Of a stretch of DNA of 38,631 nt, positions 3,839 through 31,079 are shown piece after piece. The DNA lies in IMG/VR virus record IMGVR_UViG_3300032244_000153, positions 1 to 38,631 of that record; one strand, given 5' to 3'. Made by a program: the position numbers and the translations under genes. The DNA comes from a virus. Lineage: Duplodnaviria > Caudoviricetes. Numbering within the stretch: the first letter of the stretch is position 1; each line of letters opens with the position of its first letter. The notes below the pieces were generated by a model that was not told the DNA's origin, did not search any database, and was given only the letters and a program-made list of their open reading frames with translations.

Positions 3839-4285
3839 ATGGTCAGGCAGGCAACCGAACAGGACGTCGACCAATTGACCGCAATGGCACGCGAGTTCAT
3901 CGGCTACAGCGCGTATGGCACGATGATCGCGCCAGCCGACGATGACATACGCACGGGCATCATCTCCGTGATCCGATCCGGCGTGATGTTCGTCGCCGAG
4001 GTCGATGGCAAGCTGGTCGGCGTCATCGCGGGGATCATCGCTCCGATGTGGTTCGCGCCGAGCATTTCGTGCGCCGTCGAACTCGCCTGGTGGGTTGACC
4101 CGGCGCACCGCATGACGCGCATCCCGTTCCGCCTGATCGCGGCGCTCGAGGAATGGGCAAGGGAATCGGGCGCGAGGCTCCTGTGCATGAGCGAACTCGT
4201 CATCAACGGCGAGACGCCAATCGCGAGGATGCTGTCGCGCATGGGATACGTCAACACCGAACGCTCTCACGTGAAGGAACTCTGA
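3839..4285 (+). CDS. GNAT-family acetyltransferase-like protein
   Basis: VRQATEQD, FVAEVDGKLVG, ELAWWVDPAHR, LEEWARESGA, RMGY; GGAGG RBS. Confidence 0.85.
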   Translation: MVRQATEQDVDQLTAMAREFIGYSAYGTMIAPADDDIRTGIISVIRSGVMFVAEVDGKLVGVIAGIIAPMWFAPSISCAVELAWWVDPAHRMTRIPFRLIAALEEWARESGARLLCMSELVINGETPIARMLSRMGYVNTERSHVKEL

Positions 4286-7292: not shown

Positions 7293-7628
7293 GTGAGCCA
7301 GTACGACCCTCTCGACCTGCGTGGGCAGGAGCGCGACAAGCAGAACCGCGAGCTGCGCGACAGGTTGGCGAGGGAGGCCGAGGAATCGGACGTCAAGTGG
7401 CTCATGGCGAGCAGGCGAGGCAGGCGGATCGTCTGGCGCATGCTCGACCAGGCAGGCGTGTTCCGATCATCGTTCAACACCAACGCGATGACGATGGCGT
7501 TCTCGGAAGGCGCACGGAACTCGGGACTTCGGATGCTGGCAATCGTCCACGGTTGCTGCCCCGAGCATTACCCGACCATGATGAAGGAACAGACCGATGA
7601 GCGAACCAATGATGATGGAAACGGCTGA
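7293..7628 (+). CDS. Bbp19-like protein
   Basis: DVKWLM...GRRIVWRML...GVFRSSF...MAFSEGARNSGL. Confidence 0.85.
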   Translation: MSQYDPLDLRGQERDKQNRELRDRLAREAEESDVKWLMASRRGRRIVWRMLDQAGVFRSSFNTNAMTMAFSEGARNSGLRMLAIVHGCCPEHYPTMMKEQTDERTNDDGNG

Positions 7629-8286
7629 AACCACCACACAAGCCGCTCCTGCATCAGAGTCCCCGTCCGGCGTCGCGGCGACGGCCGAGAAGCTGTACGG
7701 GGGAGAGCAGAAGGCGACCACGACCCAGGACTCGCAAGCCGCAGACGCGGCCGCTACGAGCAAGGCCGAGGCGACCGATGCGAAGACCGACGCGAAGGCT
7801 GCGGAAACCAAGCCGCAGGGCGCGCCGGAGAAGTACGAGTTCAAGGCCGAGGAAGGTCGAGCGTTCGACCCCGAGGTCATGGAAGCGTATAGCACGGTCG
7901 CGAAGGAGCTGAACCTGTCGCAGGAAGCCGCGCAGCGCGTCCTCGACGCTATGGCCCCCAAGATGGCCCAGCGTCAGCAGGCGCAGATTGAGGCCGTTCG
8001 AGCGGAGTGGGTGACCAACTCCAAAGGCGACAAGGAGTTCGGGGGCGACAAGCTCTCCGAGAACCTCGGCGTCGCCAAGAAGGCGCTCGATGCGTTCGGC
8101 ACCGCCGAACTCCGCAGTCTGCTCAATCAGTCCGGCCTGGGCGATCACCCGGAGGTGATCCGGTTCATGTACCGCGCAGGCAAGGCAATCAGCGAGGATC
8201 GGTTCGTCGGCGGCGCACCTGCCGTTGGCAAGGGCGCTCCGAAGGGCTTCTCCGATTTCGCTGACGTTCTTTACTCCAACACCTAA
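7597..8286 (+). CDS. Capsid scaffolding protein
   Basis: Acidic Ala/Thr-rich N-terminus, APEKYEF, LGDHPEVIRFMYRAGKAISED; immediately precedes the MCP. Confidence 0.85.
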   Translation: MSEPMMMETAETTTQAAPASESPSGVAATAEKLYGGEQKATTTQDSQAADAAATSKAEATDAKTDAKAAETKPQGAPEKYEFKAEEGRAFDPEVMEAYSTVAKELNLSQEAAQRVLDAMAPKMAQRQQAQIEAVRAEWVTNSKGDKEFGGDKLSENLGVAKKALDAFGTAELRSLLNQSGLGDHPEVIRFMYRAGKAISEDRFVGGAPAVGKGAPKGFSDFADVLYSNT

Positions 8287-9372: not shown

Positions 9373-9849
9373 ATGATTCTCGACACCAATCTCGTCGTTT
9401 CCGGAACCGTGCCTGCCACCGGGGTGGCAACCGGGCAGGCGGCACTTCCTGTGTCTGGCACTCCCGTGCTTTCCACGGACACCATCGACCTTGCGGTCGC
9501 TCGCGACATTGGCGAAGGTTCGGATCTGTACATGAACTTCGTCACGGTCGCTGCATACAACAACCTGACGTCGCTGACGTTTGAGATCATCGGCGCGACG
9601 AACGCCGCTCTCTCGACCGGCGTGACCGTCATCGGATCGTCCGGGCCTGTTCTCCAGGCAAGCCTGACGGCGAACGCGCAGTTCTCCGTGCGGTTCAACC
9701 CGCAGCTCCTCTCGACCGGCCAGCGTTACATCGGCGCGCGGTACACCACGGTCGGTACGACTCCGACCACGGGCAGCGTGTGCGCCTATGTGGTGATGGA
9801 CGTCCAGGACGGCCGCAAGTTCTACGCGTCCGGCTTCTCGGTGACCTGA
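9373..9849 (+). CDS. Capsid cement protein (Bbp16-like)
   Basis: MILD...STDTIDL...RDIGEG...QRYIGARYT; follows the MCP. Confidence 0.85.
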   Translation: MILDTNLVVSGTVPATGVATGQAALPVSGTPVLSTDTIDLAVARDIGEGSDLYMNFVTVAAYNNLTSLTFEIIGATNAALSTGVTVIGSSGPVLQASLTANAQFSVRFNPQLLSTGQRYIGARYTTVGTTPTTGSVCAYVVMDVQDGRKFYASGFSVT

Positions 9850-9861
9850 TAGGAGAACCCG

Positions 9862-10056
9862 ATGGCAAAGGTCAAGGCAAAGGTCGTCTGCTTCGTGGAC
9901 AACCACTACCGCAACGAAGGCGACATGTTCGAGTACAACGGCCCGTTCAACGGGAACCTCGAGTACCTCGAGGCGCCCGAGGAGAAGGCCGTCGAAGAAC
10001 AGCCGGTTCGCAAGCTGCGGAAGCCCAAGAACGCCGCGACCGAAGCATCGGAGTGA
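9862..10056 (+). CDS. Small hypothetical virion-associated protein
   Basis: AGGAG RBS; CFVDNHYRNEGDMFEY. Confidence 0.75.
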   Translation: MAKVKAKVVCFVDNHYRNEGDMFEYNGPFNGNLEYLEAPEEKAVEEQPVRKLRKPKNAATEASE

Positions 10057-10074
10057 TCCTCGGATTGTGACTCG

Positions 10075-10115
10075 ACAGGAGGGGCGTCGGCGGGAAACCT
10101 CGACGCCCCTCCTGT
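10075..10115 (+). terminator. Strong hairpin after the capsid genes (terminator or RNA stabiliser)
   Basis: 15-bp perfect stem ACAGGAGGGGCGTCG/CGACGCCCCTCCTGT with an inner GG-GAAA-CC; weak U tail. Confidence 0.7.
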
Positions 10116-10133
10116 TCCTGATAGGAGGCCGGC

Positions 10134-10814
10134 ATGGCATCGGTCGTTGACATCTGCAACCTCGCGCTCGCGCACCTCGGGGACGACGCGACCGTCGCCA
10201 GCATCGACCCTCCGGAGGGATCGGCACAGGCCGAGCATTGCGCGCGCTTCTATCCCATCGCGCGCGACACCCTCCTCCAGACGCACGCATGGAACTTCGC
10301 CTCGCGCCGAGCCTCGCTCGCGCAGGTCACCATGCCGTACAGCATGTGGAAGTACGCATACGCGGTTCCCGGCGACATGATGACCGCCGTCGCCGTCCTT
10401 CCGCCCGAGGCGCAGAACGACTACGCGACGCGCTTCTCGCCGGCGGAATACCCGTACTACAACGCGAACTTCTCGCCGATGCTCGCCGCTGGGCAGTACG
10501 TGCCGCAGCGGTACTCCATCGAGACTGACACGCTCGGGAACAAGGTGCTGTACACCGACCAGGAGAACGCGCTCTTGCGGTACCAGGCGCTCGTCAACGA
10601 CCCGACCAAGTTCGACCCGCTGTTCACGATGGCGCTGTCGTGGCACCTCGCGTCAATGCTCGCCGGCCCGGTCATCAAGGGCGACCAGGGTTCCGCCGAG
10701 GCGAAGAAGTGCGCGCAGATGATGCTGCTGTATCTTCAGCAGGCGCGCGCGTCCGACGCGAACCAGCGCGACGTCAAGGTCGAACACATCGTCCCCTGGA
10801 CTTCAGGACGCTGA
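10134..10814 (+). CDS. Tail tubular protein A / adaptor (T7 gp11-like)
   Basis: MASVVDICNLALAHLG...HAWNFA...FDPLFTMALSWHLA. Confidence 0.9.
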   Translation: MASVVDICNLALAHLGDDATVASIDPPEGSAQAEHCARFYPIARDTLLQTHAWNFASRRASLAQVTMPYSMWKYAYAVPGDMMTAVAVLPPEAQNDYATRFSPAEYPYYNANFSPMLAAGQYVPQRYSIETDTLGNKVLYTDQENALLRYQALVNDPTKFDPLFTMALSWHLASMLAGPVIKGDQGSAEAKKCAQMMLLYLQQARASDANQRDVKVEHIVPWTSGR

Positions 10815-10817
10815 CCG

Positions 10818-13511
10818 ATGCCAAGCACCCGGACGTACTATCGCTCGTTCGCAGGCGGCGAGATCAGCCCGGAGATGTTCGGGCGCATCGACGACGCCAA
10901 GTACCAGACGGGCGCATCGACGATGCTCAACTTCATCGCGCTCCCGCAGGGCGCGGTGGAGAACCGTCCCGGCCTCGCGTTCGTGCGCGAGGTGAAGAAC
11001 AGCGCGTCCGCGACACGCCTGATCCCGTTCCAGTTCAGCCCGACCCAGACGCTGGTCGTGGAGATGGGTGCCGGGTACTTCCGGTTCCACACGCAGGGAG
11101 CGACGGTCGGGCCGGGAACGCCTGCCGCCTACAACGGCGCGACCGCATATGACGTCGGCGACCTCGTCGCGAGCGGTGGCGTGAACTACTACTGCATCGC
11201 GGCTACCACGGGCAACGCTCCTCCGAACGCGACCTACTGGTACGCGATGCCGGCGGGGATTCTCGAGATCCCGAACCCATACGCTGCTGCCGATCTGTTC
11301 GACATTCACTACGTGCAGAGCGGCGACATCGTCACGCTCGTCCATCCGTCCTATGCCGCGCGCGAGCTGCGTCGGTACGGCGCGACGGATTGGACTCTGA
11401 CGAGCATCAGCTTCTATTCGCCGATCAACTCGCCTTCGCCGATCACCGGAACCCCGTACCGTGGCGGGGCGCTCAACATCACGGCGGTCGCCATCGGCAG
11501 TCCAGGCGTCTTCACGACGGTGACCGATCATGGATTCACGAACGGCGACGTCGTCTTCATCGGCGAGTTGACGTTCACCAACCCGAACTCGATCAACAAC
11601 AACTTCTATACAGTCTTCGGCGTAACTGCGAACACGTTCCAAATCAAGAGGTACGACACCGGGCAGCAGATCAACACGGCGACCCTCGTCGCATACATCA
11701 GCGGCGGCTATGTGCAACCGGGATCGACTGCGTACCCGAAGCAGACGTACCGCGTGACATCGGTCACGGCAGACGGCCGCGAGAGTACGGACATCGATCT
11801 GCGATCCGTGTTCAACAATCTCGACGTTCCTGGTTCGTACAACCTGCTTTCGTGGTCGGCGGTATCCGGAGCAGCCTCGTACCGCATCTACAAGGAAACG
11901 CCAGGATTCATCGCAGCCCTGATCGGGACGACGACGGGTACATCTTTCGAGGACAACAACATCGCGCCGGATCTCGGCGTGACGTTCCCGAACAACGACA
12001 TCTCTCTGGACACGCAGTACCCGAGAGCGGTCGCCTACTACGAGCAGCGCCGCGTGTTCGCCGGCCCGAACGCGGCACCGCAGTCGATGTGGTTCACGGA
12101 GTCTGGAACCGAGAGTTCCATGATCTACCACACTCCGCTGCTCGACACCGACCGCATCAACATCAAGGTCGCCGCGCGCGAGAACAACACGATCCAGCAC
12201 CTCGTCCCGCTCACGCAGCTGCTGGCGCTGACGAACGCCGCCGAGTGGCGCGTCTCGCCGATCAACAGCGACGCGCTCACTCCGACCACGATCTCGGTTC
12301 GTCCGCAGTCGTACATCGGATCGAACAACGTGCAGCCCGTGGTCGTGAACAACGCGGTCGTCTACTGCGCGGCTCGCGGCGGCCACGTGCGCGAACTCGG
12401 CTACTCCTGGCAGTCGAGCGGGTTCATCACGGGCGACCTGTCGATCCGAGCGGCGCACCTGTTCGACGACCTCGAGATCGTTGACATGTGCTACGCGAAG
12501 GCTCCGCAGCCGCTGCTGTGGTTCGTGTCAACGAGCGGCAAGCTGCTCGGGCTGACGTACATCCCGGAGCAGCAGGTCGGCGCGTGGCACCAGCACCAGA
12601 CTGACGGCGCGTTCGAGAGCTGCACGGTCGTCTCCGAGGGCGACGAGGACTACCTGTACGTCGTGGTCAACCGCACCATCGGTGGTTCGACGAAGCGGTA
12701 CGTCGAGCGCATGGCGTCGCGTAACTTCGACGCGCTCGAGGATGCGTTCTTCGTTGACAGCGGCCTGACCTACGACGGCACGAACACCACGGCAACGACC
12801 GTGACCGTCACGACCGCGAGCGATTGGACGCCGGCGGCGACTCTCACGATCACCGCCAGCGCGACCACGTTCGCGTGGCCAGCCACGACCGATGTCGGGG
12901 ACGTCATCGTCCTGACGGACACGGACGGCACCAAGTACAGGCTGACGATCCTCTCGACCTCGTCAACGACCGTTGCCACGGCGCGCGTTGACAAGACGCT
13001 CGGCACCGCGTTCCGGGGCGTCCCGACCACGACCTGGGCTTGGGCGCGAGACACGGTCGGCGGCCTGTCGCACCTGAACGGAAAGACTGTGTCGATCCTC
13101 GGCGATGGCGCGGTGATGACGCAGCGCGTTGTGTCGTCCGGATCTGTGACACTCGACCGTCCGGCGACTGTGGTGCAGGTCGGTCTGCCGTATCAGTCCG
13201 ACCTGAAGACGCTTCCGATGATTATCCAGATGGAGGCGTTCGGGCAGGGCAGGAACAAGAACCTCAACAAGGCGTACCTGCGCGTATATCGCTCGAGCGG
13301 AATCTTCGCTGGGCCGTCCGACACGAAGCTCATTGAGTTCAAGCAGCGCACGACCGAGCCGTATGGCTCGCCGCCGGCATTGAAGACCGAGGAGATCGGC
13401 ATCGACCTGAAGCCGTCGTGGAACCCGGACGGATACCTGTTCGTGCGGCAGTCTGACCCGCTGCCGCTGACCATCGTCGGGGTCACGCTCGAGGTCGTAA
13501 TCGGAGGCTGA
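10818..13511 (+). CDS. Tail tubular protein B / nozzle (T7 gp12-like) with inserted modules
   Basis: SFAGGEISP, YVQSGDI, YPRAVAYYEQR, EQQVGAWHQH, LSHLNGKTV, QSDPLPLTI. Confidence 0.92.
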   Translation: MPSTRTYYRSFAGGEISPEMFGRIDDAKYQTGASTMLNFIALPQGAVENRPGLAFVREVKNSASATRLIPFQFSPTQTLVVEMGAGYFRFHTQGATVGPGTPAAYNGATAYDVGDLVASGGVNYYCIAATTGNAPPNATYWYAMPAGILEIPNPYAAADLFDIHYVQSGDIVTLVHPSYAARELRRYGATDWTLTSISFYSPINSPSPITGTPYRGGALNITAVAIGSPGVFTTVTDHGFTNGDVVFIGELTFTNPNSINNNFYTVFGVTANTFQIKRYDTGQQINTATLVAYISGGYVQPGSTAYPKQTYRVTSVTADGRESTDIDLRSVFNNLDVPGSYNLLSWSAVSGAASYRIYKETPGFIAALIGTTTGTSFEDNNIAPDLGVTFPNNDISLDTQYPRAVAYYEQRRVFAGPNAAPQSMWFTESGTESSMIYHTPLLDTDRINIKVAARENNTIQHLVPLTQLLALTNAAEWRVSPINSDALTPTTISVRPQSYIGSNNVQPVVVNNAVVYCAARGGHVRELGYSWQSSGFITGDLSIRAAHLFDDLEIVDMCYAKAPQPLLWFVSTSGKLLGLTYIPEQQVGAWHQHQTDGAFESCTVVSEGDEDYLYVVVNRTIGGSTKRYVERMASRNFDALEDAFFVDSGLTYDGTNTTATTVTVTTASDWTPAATLTITASATTFAWPATTDVGDVIVLTDTDGTKYRLTILSTSSTTVATARVDKTLGTAFRGVPTTTWAWARDTVGGLSHLNGKTVSILGDGAVMTQRVVSSGSVTLDRPATVVQVGLPYQSDLKTLPMIIQMEAFGQGRNKNLNKAYLRVYRSSGIFAGPSDTKLIEFKQRTTEPYGSPPALKTEEIGIDLKPSWNPDGYLFVRQSDPLPLTIVGVTLEVVIGG

Positions 13512-14211: not shown

Positions 14212-16026
14212 ATGCCGACCGTACCTACGACTTTCGTTCCGCAGGTCGCACCGCAGGGCGGAGGCGACATCGGCCAGTTCGCAGCTCCCGGCGTCGCGCC
14301 GATGGAGAACCTAGCCCCGAGGCAGCAGATTGAGCTGGGGCGCACGATGACGCAGGCCGGCAACGTGGCGTTCCGCGTCGGCTCGAGCCTTCAGGACGCG
14401 CTCGACGAGGCAGCGGCGAAGGAGGCAGACGTCGCCGTCCTGACGCAGTTCGGGGAACTCTCGAGCGCCTACCTGTCAACGCAGGGGAAGGAATCGGAGA
14501 CGCAGTTCCAGGCCGCGTCCGAACGCCTGTCGCAGATCGGCGCGACGGCGATGGACGGACTCCAGACCGAGACGCAGAAGCGAATGTTCGCGCCCGTCCT
14601 TGCGCGCAACATGGCGTCGATCCAGACGCGCATGGCCGGACACCGCAACGAGCAGGTCAAGCAGTACAACGTCAAGGAGGGCATCGCCCGTGGCGAGATG
14701 TACGCAGACCAGGCGGTCGTGGCCTACGCCAACAAGGACGCCATCAACCCGATGACGGGCCAGCCGTTCGGGCGCGACGAGTACGACGTCAACATCGGCG
14801 TCGCCCTGAACAGCATCCGCTCCGCTGCCGCCGAGATGGGCATCCCTGCCGATTCCGCGCAGGTGAAGCAGATGGAGCAGCGCGTGTACGACAAGGTCGC
14901 GACGGGCGTGGTCGGCGACCTGATGCGGCAGAACAAGTACGCCGAGGCGCAGGCGTTCCTCGACGAGATGTCGGGCGTTGACCCGAAGACCAACGAGACG
15001 CTACGCACCTCGCTCGACGCGAACCGCAAGCGCACGACCATCGAGGAGCTGACGAACAGCATCCGCTCGCAGGGAGTGCTGAACGCCAAGAGCGACCCCG
15101 AGACGTATGGGCAGACTGCCGGCGAGACGACCGCGCAGCCCGAGACGCTGCGCGAGGCGCTCGAGGTCGCCGAGGGCATTGAGGACGTCGAGACGCGCCG
15201 GCTGGTGCAGTCGAACCTTCGGTCGCAGTTCGCGCAGGAAGACACGCTCGCAGACCAGGAATACCGCACGCAGCTCGAGAACATTGAGCAGTTCCTCGCG
15301 GTTCCGAGCAACGGCATCGGAGACGTCGATCCCATCGCGTGGGGCGCGCTGAAGCCGCTCGACCGCGAGCGACTGATGCTCGGGCAGGGACGCCGCAACG
15401 ACCAACAGGTTCTCGACCAGGTCTACACCGACCCGGCGAAGCTCACGCCGGAGTTCCTCTCCGCGAACTGGCGCAAGCTCACGCCCGAGACGTATCGCAA
15501 GCTCGCCGACACGCTCGCGAAGCCCGGTGCCATCATGGACGCCACGGTTGACGCGCAGCAGGTCAACCGCACGCTCATCGACAACGGCATGACGAACCTC
15601 GCTGCCGCCGACAAGGGCGACGCGAAGGACTGGCAGGCGTCCGTGATTCTGCGGCAGAACATTCAGGAGTCGATTGCGATGGAGCAGGAGCGGCTCGGGC
15701 GCAAGATGTCCGACCGCGAGAAGCAGCCGTTCATCGACCAAGCGATCCTCCAGATGGGCAAGGTCAAGAGCAAAACGATGGGAATCGATTGGCTGTCGCG
15801 TGATCCGCAGATGCCGATTGCCGCGATGACCGCAGAGCAGCAGAAGAAGGCATACGTCGAGATCGCTGGCAAGGAGATGCCGCTGCTTCAAGCGCAGGCA
15901 GAGGTCATGGATATCCCCGACGCCGAGGTGCTGAAGATCGTCAAGGCAATGCAGGACGCCGGCGTGACTCGCCCGACGTCGTTCGAGATCCTCGCCGCGT
16001 GGTACGACAAGAAGGGCAAGAAGTGA
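14212..16026 (+). CDS. Internal virion/ejection protein (T7 gp15-like position)
   Basis: MPTVPT start, helical 604 aa, synteny. Confidence 0.8.
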   Translation: MPTVPTTFVPQVAPQGGGDIGQFAAPGVAPMENLAPRQQIELGRTMTQAGNVAFRVGSSLQDALDEAAAKEADVAVLTQFGELSSAYLSTQGKESETQFQAASERLSQIGATAMDGLQTETQKRMFAPVLARNMASIQTRMAGHRNEQVKQYNVKEGIARGEMYADQAVVAYANKDAINPMTGQPFGRDEYDVNIGVALNSIRSAAAEMGIPADSAQVKQMEQRVYDKVATGVVGDLMRQNKYAEAQAFLDEMSGVDPKTNETLRTSLDANRKRTTIEELTNSIRSQGVLNAKSDPETYGQTAGETTAQPETLREALEVAEGIEDVETRRLVQSNLRSQFAQEDTLADQEYRTQLENIEQFLAVPSNGIGDVDPIAWGALKPLDRERLMLGQGRRNDQQVLDQVYTDPAKLTPEFLSANWRKLTPETYRKLADTLAKPGAIMDATVDAQQVNRTLIDNGMTNLAAADKGDAKDWQASVILRQNIQESIAMEQERLGRKMSDREKQPFIDQAILQMGKVKSKTMGIDWLSRDPQMPIAAMTAEQQKKAYVEIAGKEMPLLQAQAEVMDIPDAEVLKIVKAMQDAGVTRPTSFEILAAWYDKKGKK

Positions 16027-19000
16027 TCGACGAAGACATCAACGAGCGTATGGCCCGACTCGTCCCCCAGCCCGGAGGCATCGGCGAGATGCCTTCCCAG
16101 ATCCCGCTCGGCATCAGCATGACGCCGACGTTTGAGCGCCCGAACGCCGCCCCGGACATTGACACCGACTACGCGGACGCGGCACGGCGCATCGCCGACA
16201 GCCGGCGCACGCAGATGATGTCGTCGCTCGTCAACATCACGGCCGTCGACCCCGACAGCGCGGCACGGTCGCAGAAGCTCGGCGCGCAGTTCGGCGTCGG
16301 CGGCGACCTGGCGGCGCGCAACGCCGAGGAGTTTCGGCAGCGCGCGTTCATTGACAGCATCTCCGGTCGCGACATGCTGCGACGCAACCCCGTCCTCGCG
16401 GACTACATCGCGCAGCGGCAGTTCGCGGAGATCGCGCACGACGACGTCGACGCGCTCGCGAAGACCGAGCAGGAGTTCAGCAAGGGCTGGTTCGCTCGTT
16501 TCGACCGCCCGGTTTCCGAGGTCGTGTCCGAGGGCATCGCCGGCATCGGCGAGGGTTTCGGCCGTGCGGTCGCGCAGGAGGAGATGTTCGCCATCGCGGA
16601 GCGCGTGTCGCAGCGCGGCGGTCGCATGGAGGTTTACGAGAAGGCGGCTCTGGACTCGTACCGCGAGGAAATGGCGAAGGGCGGCGAGCGCGGCGGTTTT
16701 CTTGAGGAAGCCGCTTACATTGGCACACAGCAGCTTACGAGCGCCCCGAGGATGATTGAACCGGCAATGATGGGCGCGACCGCAGGCGGCGCAATCGGCC
16801 TCGTCGGCGGCCCTGCCGGATTCGCCACCGTCCCGGCCGGCATGGCAACGGGGTTTTCTGCTGGTTTGTTTGCTGGAGCGTTTGAAAACTCGCGCAGAAT
16901 GGAGACTGCGCTCCTGTACTTGGACTTGCTTCCGGAAATTGGACACGAATCAGCAACCAGAATCGCCAATACTGTTGGCGTATTCAATGGCGCTCTAGAT
17001 GCTGGCGCAGCACGGCTCGTTGCCAAGCCGTTCGCCGGGTTGCTGCGCGGTGCCGTGCGGCAGAAGGTCAGCGAGTCAATCCGCCAGCAGACGACCCGCG
17101 CCGCGCTCGCCAACGCCGCGAAGGCATACGGCATCGGCGTCGCCGGCGAGGTCACGACCGAGACGGTGCAGGAGCTGAACAACGTCATCGGCTCGGAGAT
17201 CGGTCGCTACCTGGCCGACAAGCCGATGGAGATCGAGACGGAGGAAGGGCGCGAGGCCATCGCTACCCGTCTCGTTGACACGTTCGTCGCGACCGCGATG
17301 GGCATGTCGATCATGGGCGCGCCGGGGCCGGCGGGTCGGCTGTACGTTGACACGCGCGCCGCGAAGCAGGGCGAGCAGCAGGCCGCCAAGCTTCAGTCGA
17401 TGGTGAAAGCCATCGCCGACAACAAGCTACTGGCGCGGTCGCCCGAGCGCCTCGAGGAGTTCGCCGAGTCGGCCGTCGAAGGCACGGACTCGGAGACGAC
17501 CTACGTCAACGCGGCGGTCATGCACGACATCCTGCGGCAGTCCGGGATCACGGAGCAGGAGATGGACACCGTGCTTCCCGGCGTGCGCGCGCAGCTCACG
17601 GAGATGCAGCAGAACGGCATTGACCTGGGCAACAACGACGTCACGGTGCCGACCGCGCAGATGACCGTCCGGTTGCAGAAGACGCCGCTCCTGAACCAGA
17701 TCCTGCCGCACGCTCGCCTGTCGCCCGACGCGATGAGCATCACCGAGGTGCAGCAGTTCGAGGCGAACCGCGAGCAGCTCGTCGCCGAGGCTCGCCAGAT
17801 CATGGAGACGCGGCAGGAGACGGACGCCACGTTTGTCGCCGAGGCGCAGCAGGTCGAGGACAATGCGTTCGAGCAGGTTCGTCCAGTTCTTGATGCCATC
17901 AATATCGAAAAAGACATTGACAAGGACATGGCGGCGCGGACGATTGCCAAGTTGCGTCAGGCGATGGTGGTCGTTGACGCTGCGGAAGCCGGAATGACTC
18001 CGCTGCAATATGAGCGCGAATACGGAAGCCCGTTGCGCGTGCAGGGCGATGTCGCGCCTGTCGCGCCGCTCGAGCAGGCTATTACGCTTGAGCAGGCCGC
18101 CACTATCGACGCCGACTACCTCGCTGCCGTTGAGCGCGGTGACATGGCGACGGCGCAGCGCATGGTGGACGATGCGGCGATGGTTCAGGGACAGGAAGCC
18201 GTCACCTACGACGAGCAGGGCAACGTCGTCCCGCTGTCGCGCCGGTTTGACATCACCAGCCCGAAGCTCTTCGAGCAGGCGGCGATCAGTCGCGTGAGTG
18301 GATTGGGAGCTGAAGCCGCACGAAAATTGCGAGAGTCGGTAGCTGCTGACGGCGGCAAGAATGTAAGGGACATTACCGCCGATCAAGTCATTACTGATGA
18401 GCGCATTCCGACAATCACGCTGCAAGACCTGGTTGGAAAGCGAATCTTCCCGACCATTGCTGATCGCACAGCGGCTGGCGTGATCTACACGGGTATCGAT
18501 AGCAGCAAGGTTAATGTTGCCATTGAACTGCTCGGCGGCCCGTTGTTTCCGTTGCGCGAGTCAAACTTCAATGCAGGGGTGATCTGGGCTAATCGCGGAA
18601 AAGAAGTAATTTCCGCAAAGGGAAAGAAGATCGCCGAAGGTGCCGACTACATGATTGTGTTGATGGGCGATGCAGACATGCACAAGTCCAACACCACGGT
18701 CGCAAACGTCTTCTTTGCGACGCTAGAGGCGTATGTTCGTGATAAGCGGATCACCAAGAAAAATGCAGCAGCACTCACCAAATTGGTGAAAGATTCGGAG
18801 ACGAAAGACACAGATGTGCAGAAGTACATCGAGAAGTTCCCAGGATTAGATGACATCGCAACGCTCGAGGATTACCTGCACAGCATCAGCTTCACGGCTC
18901 GCGCTCGTCTGATTGATATTCTTGGAAGCAAGGCAGCTCTGGAACTTGGAGCGCCATCGATGGAGCGCATCCTTGACGCAACAAGAGAGGAGAGCATGGC

Positions 19001-22000
19001 TGGTCACCGTTGGGGAGACGGTGTTCTTGTCGTCAAGATCGACAAGGACAGACCGTTCATCACGCTCGGCGAAGGTGGCACGCGATTGCACCCGGACTTC
19101 CCGCTGGGCATGCGTGGGCAAGTGGTTGGCAAGCTCGACGCGGCCGTCAACTACGAATTGCTGTGGCAGGACTGGCTAGACAAGCAAAGAACGTCCAAGC
19201 TTGCTACGAATAAGGAAGCCAAAATCAATCTGCGCCGAGCATTTGAACTTTCAAAGCCAGAGCTAGAGGTAACGCAGGAGCTTGTTGATCGCATCGGCCC
19301 GATTCAGCAGGGCAACATCGACAGCAGCCGGCAGGCGGTGTTGGCCGTTGATATGGCTTTGAATCGTTGGAGAACAGGCAGCATTGCCAAGAACAAGGGA
19401 GGAGCGTCTCCGCAAGGATTTGTGGATGCCGTTGCGAACTCTCCGGCGAATGTAGTTCTGAATGAATACAAGATCGGAGACGTCAAAGCTGCCATCAAAG
19501 ATGGCAGCATGAGCATCTACCAGCTCGGCGATGAGAATTCCGGTATTTGGTTTGCGCTCAAGAAGGGCAATCCGGCTGCCGAGTACGGCCTCAATATTGA
19601 CGGCCTTACTGACCAAGATATGACTCTCACCGCCGTGGTCAATAATGAGCAGGGAGCGCGTGGTATTGGAGCGCCTGCGGTAGTGCTGAAAGCGTTGCGG
19701 GAAGGCGCTACCGTCCTCGACTGCTTCGCGGTACAATCGGCTCGCTTCCCCGACGGCTTTCTGCCGAGCCTCTATCGTGAGTTTGGATTTGAAGTTGTTG
19801 GGGAGGTTCCGTTTGAACCGAAGTATTACAGCAAGAAGAAGCTGGCCGATGCCGAGAAGTTCTGGACGGAGTCTGGATGGGACAAGAACAAGTACGGCTA
19901 CCCGCGTGTAGTCATTATGAAATGGAGAGGCACAGATGAAGACCGGGCAGGCATCACCGAGCGATATTTACGAGACGGCATTGCAGGTGTTCTCTCCGGA
20001 GGAGCTTCGGCAAATGCCCAGGCAGCAGCGGCTCTCTTTGGCGGTGATGCTGGAACGCAGGCTGGAGCAGCGGTCGGCCCCGTCGAAGGACGAGTTGGAG
20101 GGACTGAAAGACCTGTTGCTCAACGATCTCTGGCATCCCGCGCTGTCGGCATTGCCAGAGACATTGCAGCCCTGACCGACAACGAGGCTCGAAATCTTGG
20201 CATCAGCACGGCGGATCGTGATGCCATTGCGAGCGGGTTGCAGCCTGGTGGCGTATTCAGCCAAAGTGGAATTGGCGGCATCCTCGAGCAGGCCGCTGCC
20301 GGCCCAGCCCGAGGCGGATTCGACCCGCGCACTCTGAACATCTTCATTCGGTCGGGCGGGGACATCTCCACGATGTTCCATGAGCTGATCCACCTGCGGA
20401 TCGCCGAGTATCTCCGTCTCGCTGCTGGTGCAAATCCGCCGGCTCGCGTCGTTGCCGACTTGGACATCCTGTTCAAGTTCATGGGCGTAGAGGGAGACAC
20501 GTTCGAGGATCGTCTTCGCAACTACTCAACGATGAGCATCGAGAAGCGTGCGCCTCTCGAGGAGAAGGTCACCTACAACGCGGAGATTTACATCTGGGAA
20601 GGCAAGGCTCCGAGCGTGGAACTGCGCGGAGTATTCGACCGCATGGCAGCATGGATGCGTCGGGCGTACAAGTCGATTCGCGATAACCTGAACGATATCT
20701 ACCGGGACAAGTTCGGCACCGATCTCCCGATCCTCACCCCGGAAGTGCGAGGCGTATTTGATCGCATGCTCGCGACCGAGGAGCAGATCAAGCGGCAGGC
20801 GGCCATCAACGAGATGAAGCCGCAGTTCCAGACTCTTGAGCAGGCGCTCGCGAGCGGGATGACCGAGGCCGAGTACGCCGCGTACCAGGTCATGCTGCAG
20901 GAGGCGATGGACGCCGCCGTGACCGACATGACGAAGGCGAGCCTGCGGCAGATGCAATGGCTCGGCAACGCGCGCTCGCGGCTCCTGCGCGACCTCCAGC
21001 GCAAGCATGACCGCCAGCGGAAGGAAGTCCGCGACGAGGTCGCCGAGGAGATCCGGTTGCAGCCCGTGTACCGGGCGATGGAGTATCTGCGGACGGGGAC
21101 GTTCGTGGACTCGGACGGGCAGTCCGTCAAGATGGAGGGGCCGCACCGCCTCGACATGGAGGCCGTGCGGAACATCTACGCCGGCATGCCGACTCCCGAG
21201 TCGCTCGAGGCGATCCGCGCCACGGGCATGGCCGTGCCGACGAACGTCGCCCCGGACATCGCCGCGCTCGGCACGGGCGGCAAGGGCATGATGGGCAAGG
21301 ACGGCATCGACCCGGACGTCGCCGCCGAGCTGTTCGGCTACAGCAGCGGTGACGCCCTGATCCGCGCCCTGCTCGCCGCGACGCCGATGAAGGACGCCAT
21401 CGACGCACGGACGGACGAGGTGATGCTCGCCCGGTTCTCCGACCTCGTCGACCCGAAGGCGCGCGACGCCGCCGTTCAGACGGCGCTCCACAACGAGGCA
21501 CGCGCCCGGTTCGTGGCGGTGGAGCTGCGGTTTGTGGCGAAGGCCACGCAGCCGACGCGCGTCCTGATCGAGGCCGCACGGCAGGCCGCTCGCGAGATGA
21601 TCGCCGGCAAGCGCATCGTCGACGTCAAGCCGCAGGAGTTCATCGCCGCAGAGTCGCGCGCGGCTCGCGATGCCGCCGACCTCGGGAAGTACGAGGCCCA
21701 GGCGAAGATCACGGGCAAGGCCGAGTACGACCGCGTTCGTCTTGCCGCCCTCGCGGCGGGAAGCACGGAGGAGGACGCGGTTCGCGTGGCCGAGGAGGCG
21801 CAGGCCGCATTCGTCGCCGCGAGGACTGCGGAACGCGAGGCAGAGTTCAAGGCTCGGTTCGGCGCGTCCACGGTGCAGCAGGCGCTGATCCGCGCCAAGC
21901 GCGCGCAGCTCTACCAGAACCAGCTTGCCGCCGAGGCGCTGCGCGTCCGCGAGGAGGTTGACAAGGGCGTCAAGTACCTGAAGCAGGTGCTGCGCGACTC

Positions 22001-24335
22001 CAACGTCAAGCGCATGGGCGCGGACTACGCCGACCAGATCGAGCGCATCCTCGAGCGGTTCAACCTGGCGCGGTTGAGCGTGAAGGCTCGCGCCGAGCGG
22101 CAGTCGCTTTCGGATTGGCTCGCGAAGCTCAAGGAGCAGGGTCTTGAACCTGACCTCGCTCCCGAGGTGATCGACGAGGCGAATCGGAAGCAGTACCAGG
22201 AGATGACCGTCGCCGAGTTCCGCGACCTTGTCGATAGTGTCAAGCAGCTTGAACACGTTGGCAAGGAGAAGGAAAACATCCGTCGCGGAAACGAACTGCT
22301 GAAGTTCACCGAGGAGCGCGACAGGATTGACGAGAGCCTTCGCGCCAACTTCAAGGGGAAGATCACCAAGCCGCGTTCGCCGCGAGAGGAAGGCGCTCGC
22401 AAGAAGTGGAAGCTGAAGAAGTGGATGTTCGATGGCCTGGTCGCCGCGAGCATCGTGCGAATCATGGACGGCGGCAAGGACAACGGGCCGCTATGGAACT
22501 ACCTGATCCGCACGGCAAACGCCGCCGGCGACATGGAGACTCGCATGCGCGCCGAGGCAACAAAGCGCCTGACGGAGATCCTTGCCCCGGTGTTCAAGCT
22601 CGGCAAGATGGGCGGCAAGGGAATCTACTTCCCCACAATCGGTGAGTCGCTGAACCGTGAAGCAAGGATCGTCATCGCCTTGAACATGGGCAACGACGGC
22701 AATCGCCAGCGCCTACTCGACGGCGAGGGCTGGACGCTTGAGCAGCTCACGCCCGTCCTCGAGAGCCTGACCGAAGCCGAATGGACGGCCGTGCAGGAGA
22801 TGTGGGATTTCTTCGAGACGTACCGTCCGCTCGTTGCCGCGAAGGAACGACGCCTGTACGGCAAGGAACCGAACTGGGTCACGCCGACGCCGTTCACCGT
22901 CCGCACCGCAGATGGCAAGGAAGTTCGTCTGACCGGCGGCTACTACCCGATCAAGTATGACCCGGTCGCGTCCGAGGCATCTGCTCGTCAAGATGCCGCC
23001 GAATCTGCAAAGGATCAGCTGCGCGGAGCGTATACGGCTGCAAGCACGCGCCGTTCCTTCACGAAGCAGCGTGCCAAGAAGGTCAACGAGCGCCCGTTGA
23101 TCTACAGCATGTTCGGCCTGTACAGCGGTGTCAACGAGGTCATCCACGACCTGTCATGGCACGAATGGCTGATTCAGGCGAACCGCCTGATGCGCGACGA
23201 GAAGTTCAACAAGACCGTCCGCGAGACGTATGGCGCAATCGCCGTCGAGAGGCTGAAGGATTGGGTCAACAAGAATGCCGCCGGCGATGCCAGTTCTGAT
23301 GATGCGATTGCTGCTGCCGTGTCTTTGCTGCGGCGGAACGTCAGCGTGAGCGGTCTTGGTTTCAATGTCGTCAGCGCCGCGCTTCAGATTACGGGATTTA
23401 ACCAGAGCATTGTTCGCGTCGGCGCGAAGTGGATTGCTCGAGGCGTGGCGTATACGGTCGCGAATCCCTTGCGGACATTCAAGGAAGTGAACGACAAGTC
23501 GTCGTTCATGGCGGATCGCGCTCGCACGCAGTTCCGCGAAATCAACGAAGTTCGGAATATGGTGCGAGGTGAAAGCGCGGCAAAGCGATCTATCTCGCTC
23601 GGTGCATACTTCTTGATGATGCGTATGCAGCGCATGGTCGACGTCCCGACCTGGGTCGGCGCTTATCAGAAGGCTCTTGACAGCGGAACGGACGAGGACA
23701 CCGCAATCGCGCTTGCCGACCAGGCGGTCATTGACTCGCAGGGCAGCGGCATGACGAAGGATCAGTCCGCGTGGCAGCAGGGCGGCGAGGTGTCAAAGCT
23801 GTTCACGGTGTTCTACTCGTACATGAACACCGTCTACAACATGACCGCCGTGTCAACGATGACGCCCCGCAGCAAGGGCCGGCTGGCATCGGACTATCTG
23901 ATGCTGCTTGTCGTTCCGGTCGTCCTGAACTACGCGCTGAAGAACGCGCTCACCCCGGACGTCGACGACGAGGAACCCGACCTCGAGAAGATTGCCCAGG
24001 ATCTCATCGCCGAGGAGCTGGCGTTCCTGATGGGAACGATGGTCGTTGTGCGCGAATTCCAACTTATCGCCGACAAGGTAACTGGCAGGGAAGCTGGTGG
24101 TCGAGGGTACGAGGGGCCGGCAGGTCTGCGCGGCATCGGCGAGACGATGAAGTTCTTCACGCAAGCGTCGCAGGGCGAGTTTGACCGCGCATTCCGCAAG
24201 AGCGCCGTCAACATGCTCGGCCTCGCGACCGGGCTTCCCTCGGCGCAGATCAACCGCACGCTCGACGGCATCGAGGCGCTCGCGGAGGGCGAAACCGAGA
24301 ATCCGCTCGCACCGTTGACGGGCGTGAAGCGGTGA
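16023..24335 (+). CDS. Giant ejection/polyvalent protein (~2,770 aa) with a GNAT-like module and an HExxH motif
   Basis: 8.3 kb ORF in the gp16 position; GTG start overlapping the upstream TGA; STMFHELIH at ~20367-20393; GATVLDCF...LYREFGFEVV at ~19700-19800; C-terminal ADQAVIDSQG...LFTVFYSY. Confidence 0.9.
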   Translation: MIDEDINERMARLVPQPGGIGEMPSQIPLGISMTPTFERPNAAPDIDTDYADAARRIADSRRTQMMSSLVNITAVDPDSAARSQKLGAQFGVGGDLAARNAEEFRQRAFIDSISGRDMLRRNPVLADYIAQRQFAEIAHDDVDALAKTEQEFSKGWFARFDRPVSEVVSEGIAGIGEGFGRAVAQEEMFAIAERVSQRGGRMEVYEKAALDSYREEMAKGGERGGFLEEAAYIGTQQLTSAPRMIEPAMMGATAGGAIGLVGGPAGFATVPAGMATGFSAGLFAGAFENSRRMETALLYLDLLPEIGHESATRIANTVGVFNGALDAGAARLVAKPFAGLLRGAVRQKVSESIRQQTTRAALANAAKAYGIGVAGEVTTETVQELNNVIGSEIGRYLADKPMEIETEEGREAIATRLVDTFVATAMGMSIMGAPGPAGRLYVDTRAAKQGEQQAAKLQSMVKAIADNKLLARSPERLEEFAESAVEGTDSETTYVNAAVMHDILRQSGITEQEMDTVLPGVRAQLTEMQQNGIDLGNNDVTVPTAQMTVRLQKTPLLNQILPHARLSPDAMSITEVQQFEANREQLVAEARQIMETRQETDATFVAEAQQVEDNAFEQVRPVLDAINIEKDIDKDMAARTIAKLRQAMVVVDAAEAGMTPLQYEREYGSPLRVQGDVAPVAPLEQAITLEQAATIDADYLAAVERGDMATAQRMVDDAAMVQGQEAVTYDEQGNVVPLSRRFDITSPKLFEQAAISRVSGLGAEAARKLRESVAADGGKNVRDITADQVITDERIPTITLQDLVGKRIFPTIADRTAAGVIYTGIDSSKVNVAIELLGGPLFPLRESNFNAGVIWANRGKEVISAKGKKIAEGADYMIVLMGDADMHKSNTTVANVFFATLEAYVRDKRITKKNAAALTKLVKDSETKDTDVQKYIEKFPGLDDIATLEDYLHSISFTARARLIDILGSKAALELGAPSMERILDATREESMAGHRWGDGVLVVKIDKDRPFITLGEGGTRLHPDFPLGMRGQVVGKLDAAVNYELLWQDWLDKQRTSKLATNKEAKINLRRAFELSKPELEVTQELVDRIGPIQQGNIDSSRQAVLAVDMALNRWRTGSIAKNKGGASPQGFVDAVANSPANVVLNEYKIGDVKAAIKDGSMSIYQLGDENSGIWFALKKGNPAAEYGLNIDGLTDQDMTLTAVVNNEQGARGIGAPAVVLKALREGATVLDCFAVQSARFPDGFLPSLYREFGFEVVGEVPFEPKYYSKKKLADAEKFWTESGWDKNKYGYPRVVIMKWRGTDEDRAGITERYLRDGIAGVLSGGASANAQAAAALFGGDAGTQAGAAVGPVEGRVGGTERPVAQRSLASRAVGIARDIAALTDNEARNLGISTADRDAIASGLQPGGVFSQSGIGGILEQAAAGPARGGFDPRTLNIFIRSGGDISTMFHELIHLRIAEYLRLAAGANPPARVVADLDILFKFMGVEGDTFEDRLRNYSTMSIEKRAPLEEKVTYNAEIYIWEGKAPSVELRGVFDRMAAWMRRAYKSIRDNLNDIYRDKFGTDLPILTPEVRGVFDRMLATEEQIKRQAAINEMKPQFQTLEQALASGMTEAEYAAYQVMLQEAMDAAVTDMTKASLRQMQWLGNARSRLLRDLQRKHDRQRKEVRDEVAEEIRLQPVYRAMEYLRTGTFVDSDGQSVKMEGPHRLDMEAVRNIYAGMPTPESLEAIRATGMAVPTNVAPDIAALGTGGKGMMGKDGIDPDVAAELFGYSSGDALIRALLAATPMKDAIDARTDEVMLARFSDLVDPKARDAAVQTALHNEARARFVAVELRFVAKATQPTRVLIEAARQAAREMIAGKRIVDVKPQEFIAAESRAARDAADLGKYEAQAKITGKAEYDRVRLAALAAGSTEEDAVRVAEEAQAAFVAARTAEREAEFKARFGASTVQQALIRAKRAQLYQNQLAAEALRVREEVDKGVKYLKQVLRDSNVKRMGADYADQIERILERFNLARLSVKARAERQSLSDWLAKLKEQGLEPDLAPEVIDEANRKQYQEMTVAEFRDLVDSVKQLEHVGKEKENIRRGNELLKFTEERDRIDESLRANFKGKITKPRSPREEGARKKWKLKKWMFDGLVAASIVRIMDGGKDNGPLWNYLIRTANAAGDMETRMRAEATKRLTEILAPVFKLGKMGGKGIYFPTIGESLNREARIVIALNMGNDGNRQRLLDGEGWTLEQLTPVLESLTEAEWTAVQEMWDFFETYRPLVAAKERRLYGKEPNWVTPTPFTVRTADGKEVRLTGGYYPIKYDPVASEASARQDAAESAKDQLRGAYTAASTRRSFTKQRAKKVNERPLIYSMFGLYSGVNEVIHDLSWHEWLIQANRLMRDEKFNKTVRETYGAIAVERLKDWVNKNAAGDASSDDAIAAAVSLLRRNVSVSGLGFNVVSAALQITGFNQSIVRVGAKWIARGVAYTVANPLRTFKEVNDKSSFMADRARTQFREINEVRNMVRGESAAKRSISLGAYFLMMRMQRMVDVPTWVGAYQKALDSGTDEDTAIALADQAVIDSQGSGMTKDQSAWQQGGEVSKLFTVFYSYMNTVYNMTAVSTMTPRSKGRLASDYLMLLVVPVVLNYALKNALTPDVDDEEPDLEKIAQDLIAEELAFLMGTMVVVREFQLIADKVTGREAGGRGYEGPAGLRGIGETMKFFTQASQGEFDRAFRKSAVNMLGLATGLPSAQINRTLDGIEALAEGETENPLAPLTGVKR

Positions 24336-26678: not shown

Positions 26679-28562
26679 ATGCGGAGCCTCCTCGGCCGAT
26701 TCCATCGTCCGTTTGCCCGTGGCGTTGACGAGCAGCTGCTGCTGCTCAACAACCTGGGCGACGGCTCCACGCTCTCGCTGGACTTCACCACGGGCGTCCT
26801 CGACCCGCGCCTGACGTTCACGCGCACGACCAACGCCACCTTCATCAACTCGCAGGGGTTGGTGGAATGGGCGAACTCCAACATGTATTGGAACACGGCG
26901 TTCGAGGGATTGAGCGGATCGAACCCGTCATTGACCTCCTCTGGCTGGGGATACGCTCTTTCAACTGGCGGAACTGCCGTCTTCAACGGAGACGGATCGG
27001 TTACGGTTACAACGACGGCTGCGGAGCGTAGAGCGATCTTCCGGTCTTCCGGGTTTTCCGGTGGCGGTCTTCGTGTCGTTGCATCGGTTGATGTAACGAT
27101 TGCCTCCGGATCGCTACAGGCGAGCCAAGTAATCTTTACTGGTACACCGACAAACGCGCAGCACTACGTCAATGGTGTCATCTGGAACAGTTCCCACCCG
27201 ATCTGGAACGGCGGAATCCTCCCTGTCGGTACGCAGTTCAATATTGCCTACGCTACCGACTCTCTGACAAGCAGCACGACGAGCATGTATTTCGGTGTCG
27301 GTTGTTCGTCGGCGATCGCCGGATCTGCCACGTTCTCCAATCCTCGATGGACAATGTGGAAGGGAAGCGAAACCGTCCCGTACTACCCTAATACTTCCGC
27401 GACCAACAACAGTACGGCAGATCGTTACAAGAGTGCTGACTACCAAGCCCCCCGCTTCGAATACGACCCGTCCACGCTCCAGACTCGCGGACTGCTAATT
27501 GAGGGAAGCGCGAACAACCTTCTCTGTTTGAGCGAATCATTTGCGACATCTGGCGGCACGACGAACTGGGCGTACAACGGCAATTCCGGAGCGGTTACGA
27601 GCGAAGTAAATCCCGCTGGCGTTGCGTCATCGTTTCAGTTCCGCGAAACTGCTACTGGTGGCGGTCTGCTACATCAGCCTGTTACTCCTGCACTTCCTGC
27701 TGGTGGACAAACCTACACCTTTAGCATTTGGATGCGCGGATCTGTCTATTCATCGGTAACGACAACACAGGCACAGATCGGTATTCAGGTCGGCGGTACA
27801 TTCCAAACCGTGACTCCGAGAATCGTTGGTGGATATGCGGCAAGTATCTCTGGTACGACGATCTGCACAGTCAGCGGTCTATCCACCACGCAATGGACGC
27901 GAGTCGAAATCGCCACGACCGCGAGTATCGCTGCGTCCACCACGGTGAATGTCTTTGTCTGGCCGAACACAACAAGTTACGAGAACAACGCGAGCGTTCT
28001 TCTGTGGGGAGCGCAGTTTGAGGCAGGCTCCGGCGCATCCTCGTACATCCCGACCGGGGCAAGCACGGGGAGCAGGGCGTTCGATTCCTGCGTGATGGAA
28101 GATATCACTTCGCTTCAGTACAGTACCAAGACCGGGACGATGTTCTACGCGGGAAGATTCACGCAAATGAATGCGGCGAGTTTTCCGAATCGCGTTGGAT
28201 TCACCAGAGAGACTGGAGATTTCCGAACGTTTGCGGCATTGTCAACCACAACATCTCTGCTCCCGTGCTTTGCCAATTCCGGAACTACCGTTCTTACCAC
28301 GCAAAACATCACACTCAACTCCGAGTTGAAACTGGCATTTTCGTTCGATGCTGATCTGTCCACAGCAGAAGTGAAAAGCAGTCTCAATGGTGGCGCGATT
28401 GTCCAGAGCGGAGCATCGGCACTCACAGAGTCTTCTGTTCCGACCTACTTCATGCTTGGCCAGAAGGGGTATGGCGCATTCTTCCCGCACGGAACCGTTC
28501 GCTCTGTCAAGTATTGGCCGTCCGTACTCCCGACCGCACAACTCCAAGCCCTGACCACCTGA
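26679..28562 (+). CDS. Head/tail spike-like protein with carbohydrate-binding/LamG-like modules
   Basis: LSLDF, FTRTTNATF, PRFEYDP..GLLIEG..NN, WGAQFEAG..SSYIPT, VKYWP..L..AQLQALT motifs. Confidence 0.75.
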   Translation: MRSLLGRFHRPFARGVDEQLLLLNNLGDGSTLSLDFTTGVLDPRLTFTRTTNATFINSQGLVEWANSNMYWNTAFEGLSGSNPSLTSSGWGYALSTGGTAVFNGDGSVTVTTTAAERRAIFRSSGFSGGGLRVVASVDVTIASGSLQASQVIFTGTPTNAQHYVNGVIWNSSHPIWNGGILPVGTQFNIAYATDSLTSSTTSMYFGVGCSSAIAGSATFSNPRWTMWKGSETVPYYPNTSATNNSTADRYKSADYQAPRFEYDPSTLQTRGLLIEGSANNLLCLSESFATSGGTTNWAYNGNSGAVTSEVNPAGVASSFQFRETATGGGLLHQPVTPALPAGGQTYTFSIWMRGSVYSSVTTTQAQIGIQVGGTFQTVTPRIVGGYAASISGTTICTVSGLSTTQWTRVEIATTASIAASTTVNVFVWPNTTSYENNASVLLWGAQFEAGSGASSYIPTGASTGSRAFDSCVMEDITSLQYSTKTGTMFYAGRFTQMNAASFPNRVGFTRETGDFRTFAALSTTTSLLPCFANSGTTVLTTQNITLNSELKLAFSFDADLSTAEVKSSLNGGAIVQSGASALTESSVPTYFMLGQKGYGAFFPHGTVRSVKYWPSVLPTAQLQALTT

Positions 28563-30131: not shown

Positions 30132-31079
30132 TCAGAACGGGACGTCGTTGGGGTCAACCTCGAGCGGCTTGACCGGGCCGAGGACGCGCATGATGGACAG
30201 GCTCGTCCCGATGCGCGCGATCTCGAGGGTGACCTCGCTGCCGATGTTCGCCTCGGCGAGGTCGCCGTACTCCGCGACCGAGGTCGCGATCCACGCGGTG
30301 CCGTGTTCGCCGGCGGCCTGGATGGCGATGGGCTTGCCGGGACGGCGCACGACACGCTGCACCATGAACTTCCCCTCGTACTCGTCGGGGTAGTTGTCGG
30401 CGACTGCCGGCGCGGCGGGAGCCTCGGGGGCGGCCGCAGGGGCGCTCTGCGCCGTCTTGCGCTTGCGGACGGGCTTCGGGGCGTCCTCGGCGACGGGCGC
30501 GTCCTTGGGCATCGTGGCGGCCTCCACGACCTCGGGAGCCGGGAGCGCGGCGGGGCGGCTGCGCGGAGCGTCCTCGACGATCTCCGTCTCGCCGTGCGCC
30601 TCGACGTACACCGGGGCAGCGCCGAGGGCGTCGGGGCAATGCTGCTTGTAGCCGCTGGAGATGCAACGGGCGAACAGCATCGCCTTCGGCCACTTGCGCC
30701 AGTTGTCGCCGCCGAGCTGCGCCCGTCGCGCGTCGTCCATCGTGAACTCGGTCGTGCCGATCTCCTCCCACTTGTTGTCCATCGTGCGACCGAAGAAGAC
30801 GATGCTGCACTCGGCATCCGAGCAGGTGGCGCGGTAGTCGTACTTCCCGGCACGCTTGATGGAGGCGGCCATCAGGTTCGCCGCCAGCACGGCCTTGCCC
30901 TTGATGATGTGCAGTCCGGTCATCGCGTCGTAGTCGGACAGGCCGAGGCCGCGCCCGATGATGATCTTCGCGCATGCCGCCGCCTCGGACTGAATGTCGG
31001 GGAACATCCCCGACGCCTTGAACACCTGCGCCACCGTCATGGGGTCAAGCTGCGTCTGACCAATTCGTGCAAGTTCCAT
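30132..31079 (-). CDS. RecT/Red-beta-like ssDNA-annealing recombinase
   Basis: SGMFPDI...GRGLGL...LHIIKGK...NWRKWPKAMLFARCIS; AGGAG RBS before ATG 31079; acidic PF C-terminus. Confidence 0.8.
   Translation of the reverse strand: MELARIGQTQLDPMTVAQVFKASGMFPDIQSEAAACAKIIIGRGLGLSDYDAMTGLHIIKGKAVLAANLMAASIKRAGKYDYRATCSDAECSIVFFGRTMDNKWEEIGTTEFTMDDARRAQLGGDNWRKWPKAMLFARCISSGYKQHCPDALGAAPVYVEAHGETEIVEDAPRSRPAALPAPEVVEAATMPKDAPVAEDAPKPVRKRKTAQSAPAAAPEAPAAPAVADNYPDEYEGKFMVQRVVRRPGKPIAIQAAGEHGTAWIATSVAEYGDLAEANIGSEVTLEIARIGTSLSIMRVLGPVKPLEVDPNDVPF

Follow-up and report, generated by a model that had tools for sequence, protein, structure and literature searches.

The giant virion protein and its tandem array

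We analyzed the complete 38,631-nucleotide (nt) record of a tailed virus (Duplodnaviria; Caudoviricetes; IMG/VR record IMGVR_UViG_3300032244_000153; hereafter, the window), with attention to the giant Bbp10/IVP-D-like polyvalent virion protein encoded at 15999..24335 and to an in-frame cassette of 2,013 bp within it (18273..20285; 671 codons). All features of this open reading frame (ORF) described below lie on the plus strand. The gene order is of the podovirus type, running from the terminase, portal, capsid, and tail tube/nozzle genes through an internal virion protein gene to the ORF and then to the tail fibre genes. The ORF comprises 2778 aa as listed, and its likely start, the GTG at 16023, gives 2770 aa, which is also the length of the relative P0002. 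Bbp10 of phage BPP-1 matches it with 45.7% identity over 53% of the query, and none of the 48 matching phage records covers more than 80% of its length. Bbp10, with epsilon15 gp17, is given as a homolog of T7 IVP-D (gp16) in Table 2 of PMC4819975; we took over that link and tested the scaffold homology to Bbp10 and the syntenic position, both of which hold, in support of the gp16-like position assigned in the initial annotation. The labels "crystallin motif" and "lysin" in GenBank records found no support in our domain scans.

The N-terminal scaffold carries an LPD22 domain (aa 78 to 162; 16230..16484; Pfam PF18834, E = 8.2e-15, above the cut-off), and a metallopeptidase (MPTase) motif, HExxH (HELIH; 20379..20393), follows the array; the motif is intact in 61/61 arrays, 49 scored by pattern and 12 by eye. 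LPD22, the HExxH motif, and a GNAT fold (see below) thus stand together as unrelated domains in one large polypeptide at a late virion gene position, and relatives add ART-PolyVal and PBECR domains. Its LPD22 domain, its homology to Bbp10, and its setting among virion genes place the ORF product among the polyvalent proteins as defined by Iyer et al. 2017 (PMC5512222).

Within the ORF, YTY-GAGCAGGC recurs in frame at 18069 (CTC), 18087 (CTT), 18270 (TTC), and 20283 (CTC), exactly where the initial annotation had located four copies, and a fifth copy, which it overlooked, lies at 20835 (CTT, LEQAL). This last copy (20835..20846) is part of the scaffold and is not a swap point: the match of the relatives L101 and L106 continues across it, and in more distant relatives the position reads QEQS or QAES. 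Shuffling the residues 5000 times gave on average 0.13 copies of [LF]EQA, where the ORF has five, and never as many as four; the linker is absent from the 20 largest families given by a generic repeat finder. The G+C content at third codon positions (GC3) is not flat along the ORF: it is 0.589 over the 671 codons between 18270 and 20283 and 0.829 on either flank, and an unsupervised two-change-point fit of the whole ORF, made without the linker positions, returned the segment 18288 to 20274. The A/T-richer codon endings reported earlier for this interval are therefore real, and all peptides quoted in that report occur in the translation; HELIH, said to follow the last linker directly, starts 32 codons past the start of the linker at 20283, i.e., close behind it.

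Read from the left, the array opens with a conserved arm (18029..18080) that closes the N-terminal scaffold and ends in linker 1 (LEQA, 18069 to 18080); matches of L009, L010, and L011 end at 18079. Linker 2 and the head arm of an ADP-ribosyltransferase (ART)-like module (ATIDADYLAAVERGDMATAQRMVD; 18087..18183) form an island of 86 to 92% nt identity in L002, L003, and L009 to L012. A 15-nt filler (18184..18198) stands in place of the variable core of this module; in relatives, these arms enclose various cores, and the L009 module, which has a core, matches ART-PolyVal PF18760. The tail arm (18199..18283; 86 to 98% nt island in L002, L003, L009, and L010) ends in linker 3 (FEQA, 18270 to 18281) and doubles as the left homology arm of the cassette. 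On its right, linker 4 (LEQA) and the first residues of the peptidase domain (GPARGGFDP; 20283..20330) constitute the other homology arm, an island of 41 to 52 nt at 86 to 89% in L001 to L003, after which 230 nt fail to align. We rejected an assembly artefact as the source of the collapsed ART-like module, since in run X1 a 287-bp contig spans the filler without a single difference and the collapsed form of 61 to 63 aa (cluster 2) recurs in other phages (7/61 arrays). The exchangeable cassette of the initial annotation stands, and its single cargo bay gives way to a multislot array in which 18087 to 18283 is a second, collapsed ART-like module.

Gain, loss, and replacement of modules

The cassette is subject to a precise in-frame indel. 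L101 and L106 are 92 to 97% identical to the window on both sides and lack exactly 18273 to 20285, with one linker retained; their right junction was fixed by the search pattern and their left junction was not, and the two are possibly not independent samples. The breakpoint is ambiguous within 8 to 11 nt of direct repeat. L010 (one contig with L005 and L040) is likewise without the cassette, but it has other modules upstream. Replacement is seen in L009 to L012, close relatives on the left side (L009 is 98.6% identical to the window over 10.7 kb), in which the sequence beyond linker 1 (18079) belongs to different modules; of the left arm region, L012 and L002 retain just a 51-nt island. The expectation that homology among relatives would break at the linkers, with different domains inside, is borne out by these loci. 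Among the four runs examined (X1 to X4), X2 and X3 contain contigs joining 18272 to 20286 through 8 nt of shared sequence; X2 also has the cassette itself at about 98% identity, and a 2,059-bp contig of X4 consists of the cassette plus arms at 89%; X1 may be the source. Loose contig ends in X5 and X12 connect the ART tail with the peptidase start. Transfer across divergent scaffolds is evident in P0003, where the cargo is 91% identical within a scaffold of 38 to 70% identity and has EQAA on both sides, and in P0004, where cargo of 83% identity sits in a scaffold of 25 to 44%. Either the window gained the module or L101 lost it; the low GC3 and P0003 speak for a gain at some point.

Arrays with both anchors numbered 79, or 61 after dereplication. 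Breakpoints concentrate at linkers and arms: DNA homology ends within ≤24 nt of a linker in 174/442 cases (random mean, 36; maximum, 53) and, with scaffold edges excluded, in 76/295 (random mean, 15; maximum, 27), and second peaks at ±84 to 96 nt match the arm lengths. Conserved islands of 41 to 94 nt, 83 to 98% identical, start or end at linkers while the neighboring DNA is unalignable. From the dereplicated arrays we parsed at least 107 modules in at least 28 clusters, lower bounds because 9/61 arrays gave no parsed module. The usual order is a small module, an ART-like module, and a large module, and 25 architectures occur among the 38 multimodule arrays, the same slots being reused combinatorially; M identities of the truncated loci L026, L038, and L067 were left out of this analysis. 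The contigs of L009, L011, and L012 also terminate within the array, which fits assemblies being broken by strain variation at this place.

The cargo module

The cassette encodes two predicted domains. An uncharacterized N-terminal domain (18372..19319; conserved W863, H895, N898, and H1031) is weakly PUA-like (EVE/YTH/ASCH) and has a helical insertion. It is followed by a domain that structure comparison places in the GNAT fold (19326..19949; cargo residues 349 to 556, ORF aa ~1110 to 1317), with N1216 and G1222 in the motif-A region invariant across 46 sequences. In PHROGs the cargo matched only phrog_2563, of unknown function; a PDB sequence search gave a single match (E = 0.33), which we took as chance. 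Six proteins of 400 to 475 aa (P0212, P0217, P0222, P0223, P0225, and P0229) end in the cargo N-domain without a GNAT, i.e., in a stand-alone form. Elsewhere in the window, a separate, canonical GNAT gene (3839 to 4285, plus strand; Pfam Acetyltransf_1) lies between the terminase and portal genes.

By analogy with other polyvalent/IVP-D-type proteins, from whose membership we infer packaging and injection of the ORF product, the predicted acetyltransferase is likely packaged and injected into the host alongside the DNA. Virions of phi24B contain a different polyvalent protein of 2811 aa (10.64898/2026.04.10.717836). The 670-aa module would fold as one unit, in which the EVE/YTH-like domain may bind (modified) nucleic acid and the GNAT may acetylate that nucleic acid or a nearby substrate (aminoacyl-tRNA or protein) early in infection.

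Probable recombination at the linkers and their possible role

Taken together, these observations make it quite probable that the segment represents a single module within an in-frame tandem array of a Bbp10-like giant protein, gained, lost, or replaced between phages at short hydrophobic-x-Gln (h-x-Q) linkers, likely via homologous recombination in the adjoining conserved arms, and that its predicted acetyltransferase is likely packaged and delivered together with the DNA, to act on a target of host or phage origin. Several results weigh against this reading. On the functional side, packaging, injection, and activity of this protein are inferences. The GNAT-like domain of the initial annotation stands by structure comparison and not by Pfam: no Pfam GNAT, EVE, YTH, or ASCH match was found in the cargo, nor anything else even at E up to 10, and Foldseek gave no match in PDB at E ≤ 0.001 for the cargo and none for the N-domain, whose structural Z of 6.4 is below the tool's clear-match level of 8. 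The acetyl-CoA-binding motif A of GNATs has the consensus Q/RxxGxG, and here it is atypical (NNEQGARGIG). On the side of exchange, 268/442 breakpoints (61%) lie away from linkers, and the breakpoints are not independent; the sample is biased to this architecture because the loci were recruited by arm sequence and right-junction pattern. The exact 2,013-bp joint was found in 0/4 further runs, and X5 has high depth only over the 3' 598 bp of the cassette, hinting at exchange inside modules too. In a 42-protein comparison, identity of the cargo correlates more closely with that of the M domain (rho = 0.67) than M does with C (0.45), and well-supported tree splits conflict about equally in all comparisons (10 to 14 of 27 to 28); we attribute the failure of these deep trees to single out the cargo to the scaffold itself being mosaic at family depth.

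That mosaicism is what ordinary phage recombination filtered by selection would produce, with breakpoints anywhere, only in-frame products at flexible domain boundaries surviving, and the linker a passive scar; it would also fit the majority of breakpoints, and deletion between short repeats requires no special machinery. We nevertheless regard this explanation as improbable, since it does not readily account for the conserved islands flanked by unalignable DNA, for the combinatorial reuse of the same slots, or for the change of linker around the same cargo between scaffold families. Recombination likely acts on the conserved arms (45 to 95 nt) beside the linkers rather than on a dedicated swapping site. 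Co-infecting relatives would recombine on the left through the tail arm of the ART-like module and on the right through the beginning of the peptidase domain, allele replacement probably being aided by the candidate recombinase of the phage, a RecT-like single-stranded DNA-annealing protein encoded at 30132..31079 on the minus strand (PHROG 561, E = 4.4e-10), adjoining Gp157 (Pfam Sipho_Gp157) and with RusA (Pfam) upstream. Phage Rad52-like recombinases produce mosaics across diverged DNA (PMC3945230). Clean loss could also occur by deletion between the 8- to 11-nt direct repeats. Since the modules are all bounded on either side by the same in-frame linker, recombination would leave the products in frame.

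The initial annotation went further and saw in the linkers the junctions of a cassette-swapping system. Exchange at the linkers is upheld, but we consider it very unlikely that a dedicated site-specific system uses GAGCAGGC as its crossover core. The indel is exact at the 8-mer, and Glu is coded by GAG in 107/110 junction linkers before dereplication; after it, however, GAG CAG occurs in 56/73 [FL]EQA linkers (77%) versus ~69% expected from scaffold codon use, with 17 carrying synonymous changes, and the family motif varies in amino acid as well. A conserved DNA crossover site of the integron or shufflon kind is thus lacking, the linker being free of constraint at the DNA level. An apparent preference for TTT/CTT before GAG vanished against a dicodon control, the YTT-before-GAG bias being general. 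No integrase or site-specific recombinase was found among the ORFs scanned, which were part of those on a possibly incomplete contig. With GAG CAG use near codon expectation and the motif varying as h-x-Q, codon usage points to the 8-mer being this lineage's codon spelling of a protein motif.

At the protein level, the motif is widespread. Among 128 proteins examined, 63 (some of them duplicates) have the peptidase pattern, and h-x-Q lies ≤16 aa upstream of the peptidase RG.F in 61/63, versus a 22% background, with a variable middle residue. In Bbp10-type scaffolds, h-x-Q flanks the cargo (left, 50/52; right, 26/26), whereas in other scaffolds, including LPD38-type ones, the left of the same cargo reads [YF][SA][RAGKQ] in 19/36 (14% background) and h-x-Q in 3/36, right ends being scorable in only 4. 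Linkers of the YS[R/A/G] type around the same cargo, a second linker dialect, occur in P0014, P0016, P0020, P0025, P0027, P0049, P0053 to P0057, P0059, and P0063.

The leading idea for the persistence of the motif, which we hold as possible though not probable, is that the linkers are (also) proteolytic release sites, cut at h-x-Q by the adjacent HExxH peptidase or by the product of a protease-labeled gene of the head region so that modules are freed as from a polyprotein. This is compatible with exchange through the arms and would account for retention of the motif. T4 gp21 cuts at I/L-x-E, and 3C-like proteases cut after Gln. The placement of h-x-Q before the peptidase and around the cargo and the intact HExxH speak for cleavage, as does the MPTase autoproteolysis proposed in PMC5512222; the unrestricted residue after Gln (A, G, T, P, D, Q, R, S, N, or E), and the packaging or transfer of N4 virion RNA polymerase, ArdC, and TraC1 uncut despite their MPTase (PMC5512222) speak against it, and the motif may simply be copied in each recombination as part of the first strand of the peptidase. 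A strict small-residue-after-Gln rule was rejected, as the linkers do not obey it. The head-region gene, located before the capsid gene (7597 to 8286, plus strand), matches phrog_458, labeled protease (E = 1.8e-56); its product may be a scaffold protein to which the label was transferred, or another candidate for cutting at h-x-Q. More speculative still, Bbp10-like ejection proteins might be programmable effector magazines, in which h-x-Q serves as both recombination joint and metallopeptidase cut site, with a linker dialect per scaffold family (h-x-Q versus YS[R/A]). In wild phage populations, dozens of injected enzymes would pass in and out of three slots, of which one is nested, with variable ART cores set between fixed arms; the module described here would be a new modified-base reader fused to an acetyltransferase that modifies nucleic acid within minutes of the start of infection.

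Other parts of the window may vary as well. In the scaffold, GC3 dips (0.58 to 0.64) at 16749 to 17050 and at about 22899 to 23050 are possible further exchange patches, and runs X2 to X4 show many differences and a joint near 16700 to 17015, around the first dip. The match of L009 to L012 to the window stops at ~9340 and resumes at 9620 to 10150 or runs on, suggesting more variable patches, and GC dips at 11500 to 12000 in the tail nozzle gene, with L001 and L013 unaligned at ~11450 to 11900. A tail-type gene (26679 to 28562, plus strand; phrog_5939) has a GC3 of 0.63 (other structural genes, 0.85 to 0.92) and a low-GC core at ~27000 to 28500, and it likely contains a second swapped module, in a receptor-binding protein. 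A phosphoesterase-like gene (36228 to 37199, plus strand; phrog_7339) lies on the strand opposite to its neighbors, and a minus-strand gene (37884 to 38432) matches phrog_3704, labeled ferredoxin.

Comparable systems are known in part. The phage polyvalent proteins of PMC5512222 share the late-gene position, the varying combinations of LPD22, MPTase, ART, PBECR, and GNAT domains, and the proposed injection and autoproteolysis; variable domain content, including GNATs beside ARTs, is already published. That account, in its excerpted parts, describes domain accretion over evolutionary time and makes no mention of a linker, fixed slots, arms, or population-level indels, and the N-domain of the present cargo matches no Pfam family. 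The Bbp10/epsilon15 gp17/T7 IVP-D group (PMC4819975) has a homologous scaffold at the same gene position, and Bbp10 has just one module there, PBECR1, which is flanked by FDQE and FYQG and occupies the same site, but its array spans about 165 aa, compared with 743 aa here. Polymorphic toxin systems (contact-dependent inhibition, Rhs, and MuF; PMC3482391) likewise exchange effector domains by recombination onto a constant delivery body, a theme to which cassette exchange on a constant carrier belongs. In contrast to them, the modules here lie inside the protein, follow one another in tandem, and keep the reading frame at both ends, with other phages as donors, and no C-terminal toxin, adjacent immunity gene, or orphan cassettes were found beside the gene, the next gene being a tail fibre gene. 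GNAT-EVE fusions (PMC7641849) join a GNAT to a PUA-like modified-base reader, occur in prophages, and are proposed to acetylate DNA bases or aminoacyl-tRNA; they differ in that here the domain order is reversed, the PUA-like assignment is weak and includes a helical insert, the unit is embedded in a virion protein, and we saw no partner gene of the ASCH type. PMC8954989 notes that ejection proteins swap domains. An array of slots that share a linker, with arms of homology, ART cores nested inside, and alleles differing by an exact indel, was not found described in a literature search that took in few subscription papers and not the supplementary architecture lists of PMC5512222.

Polyvalent virion proteins have been known as static domain lists, and this locus shows how they likely turn over, through fixed slots, a shared linker, and short homology arms, and near-identical phages differ in having the full, the empty, or a replaced allele. 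The linker supplies exact boundaries for 28 module clusters, which could be expressed singly in screens for anti-defense or host-takeover functions, and it offers a concrete candidate cleavage site for the autoproteolysis hypothesis of 2017. The slots may further provide a natural insertion site, tolerating 72 to 1777 aa, for protein delivery by laboratory phages.

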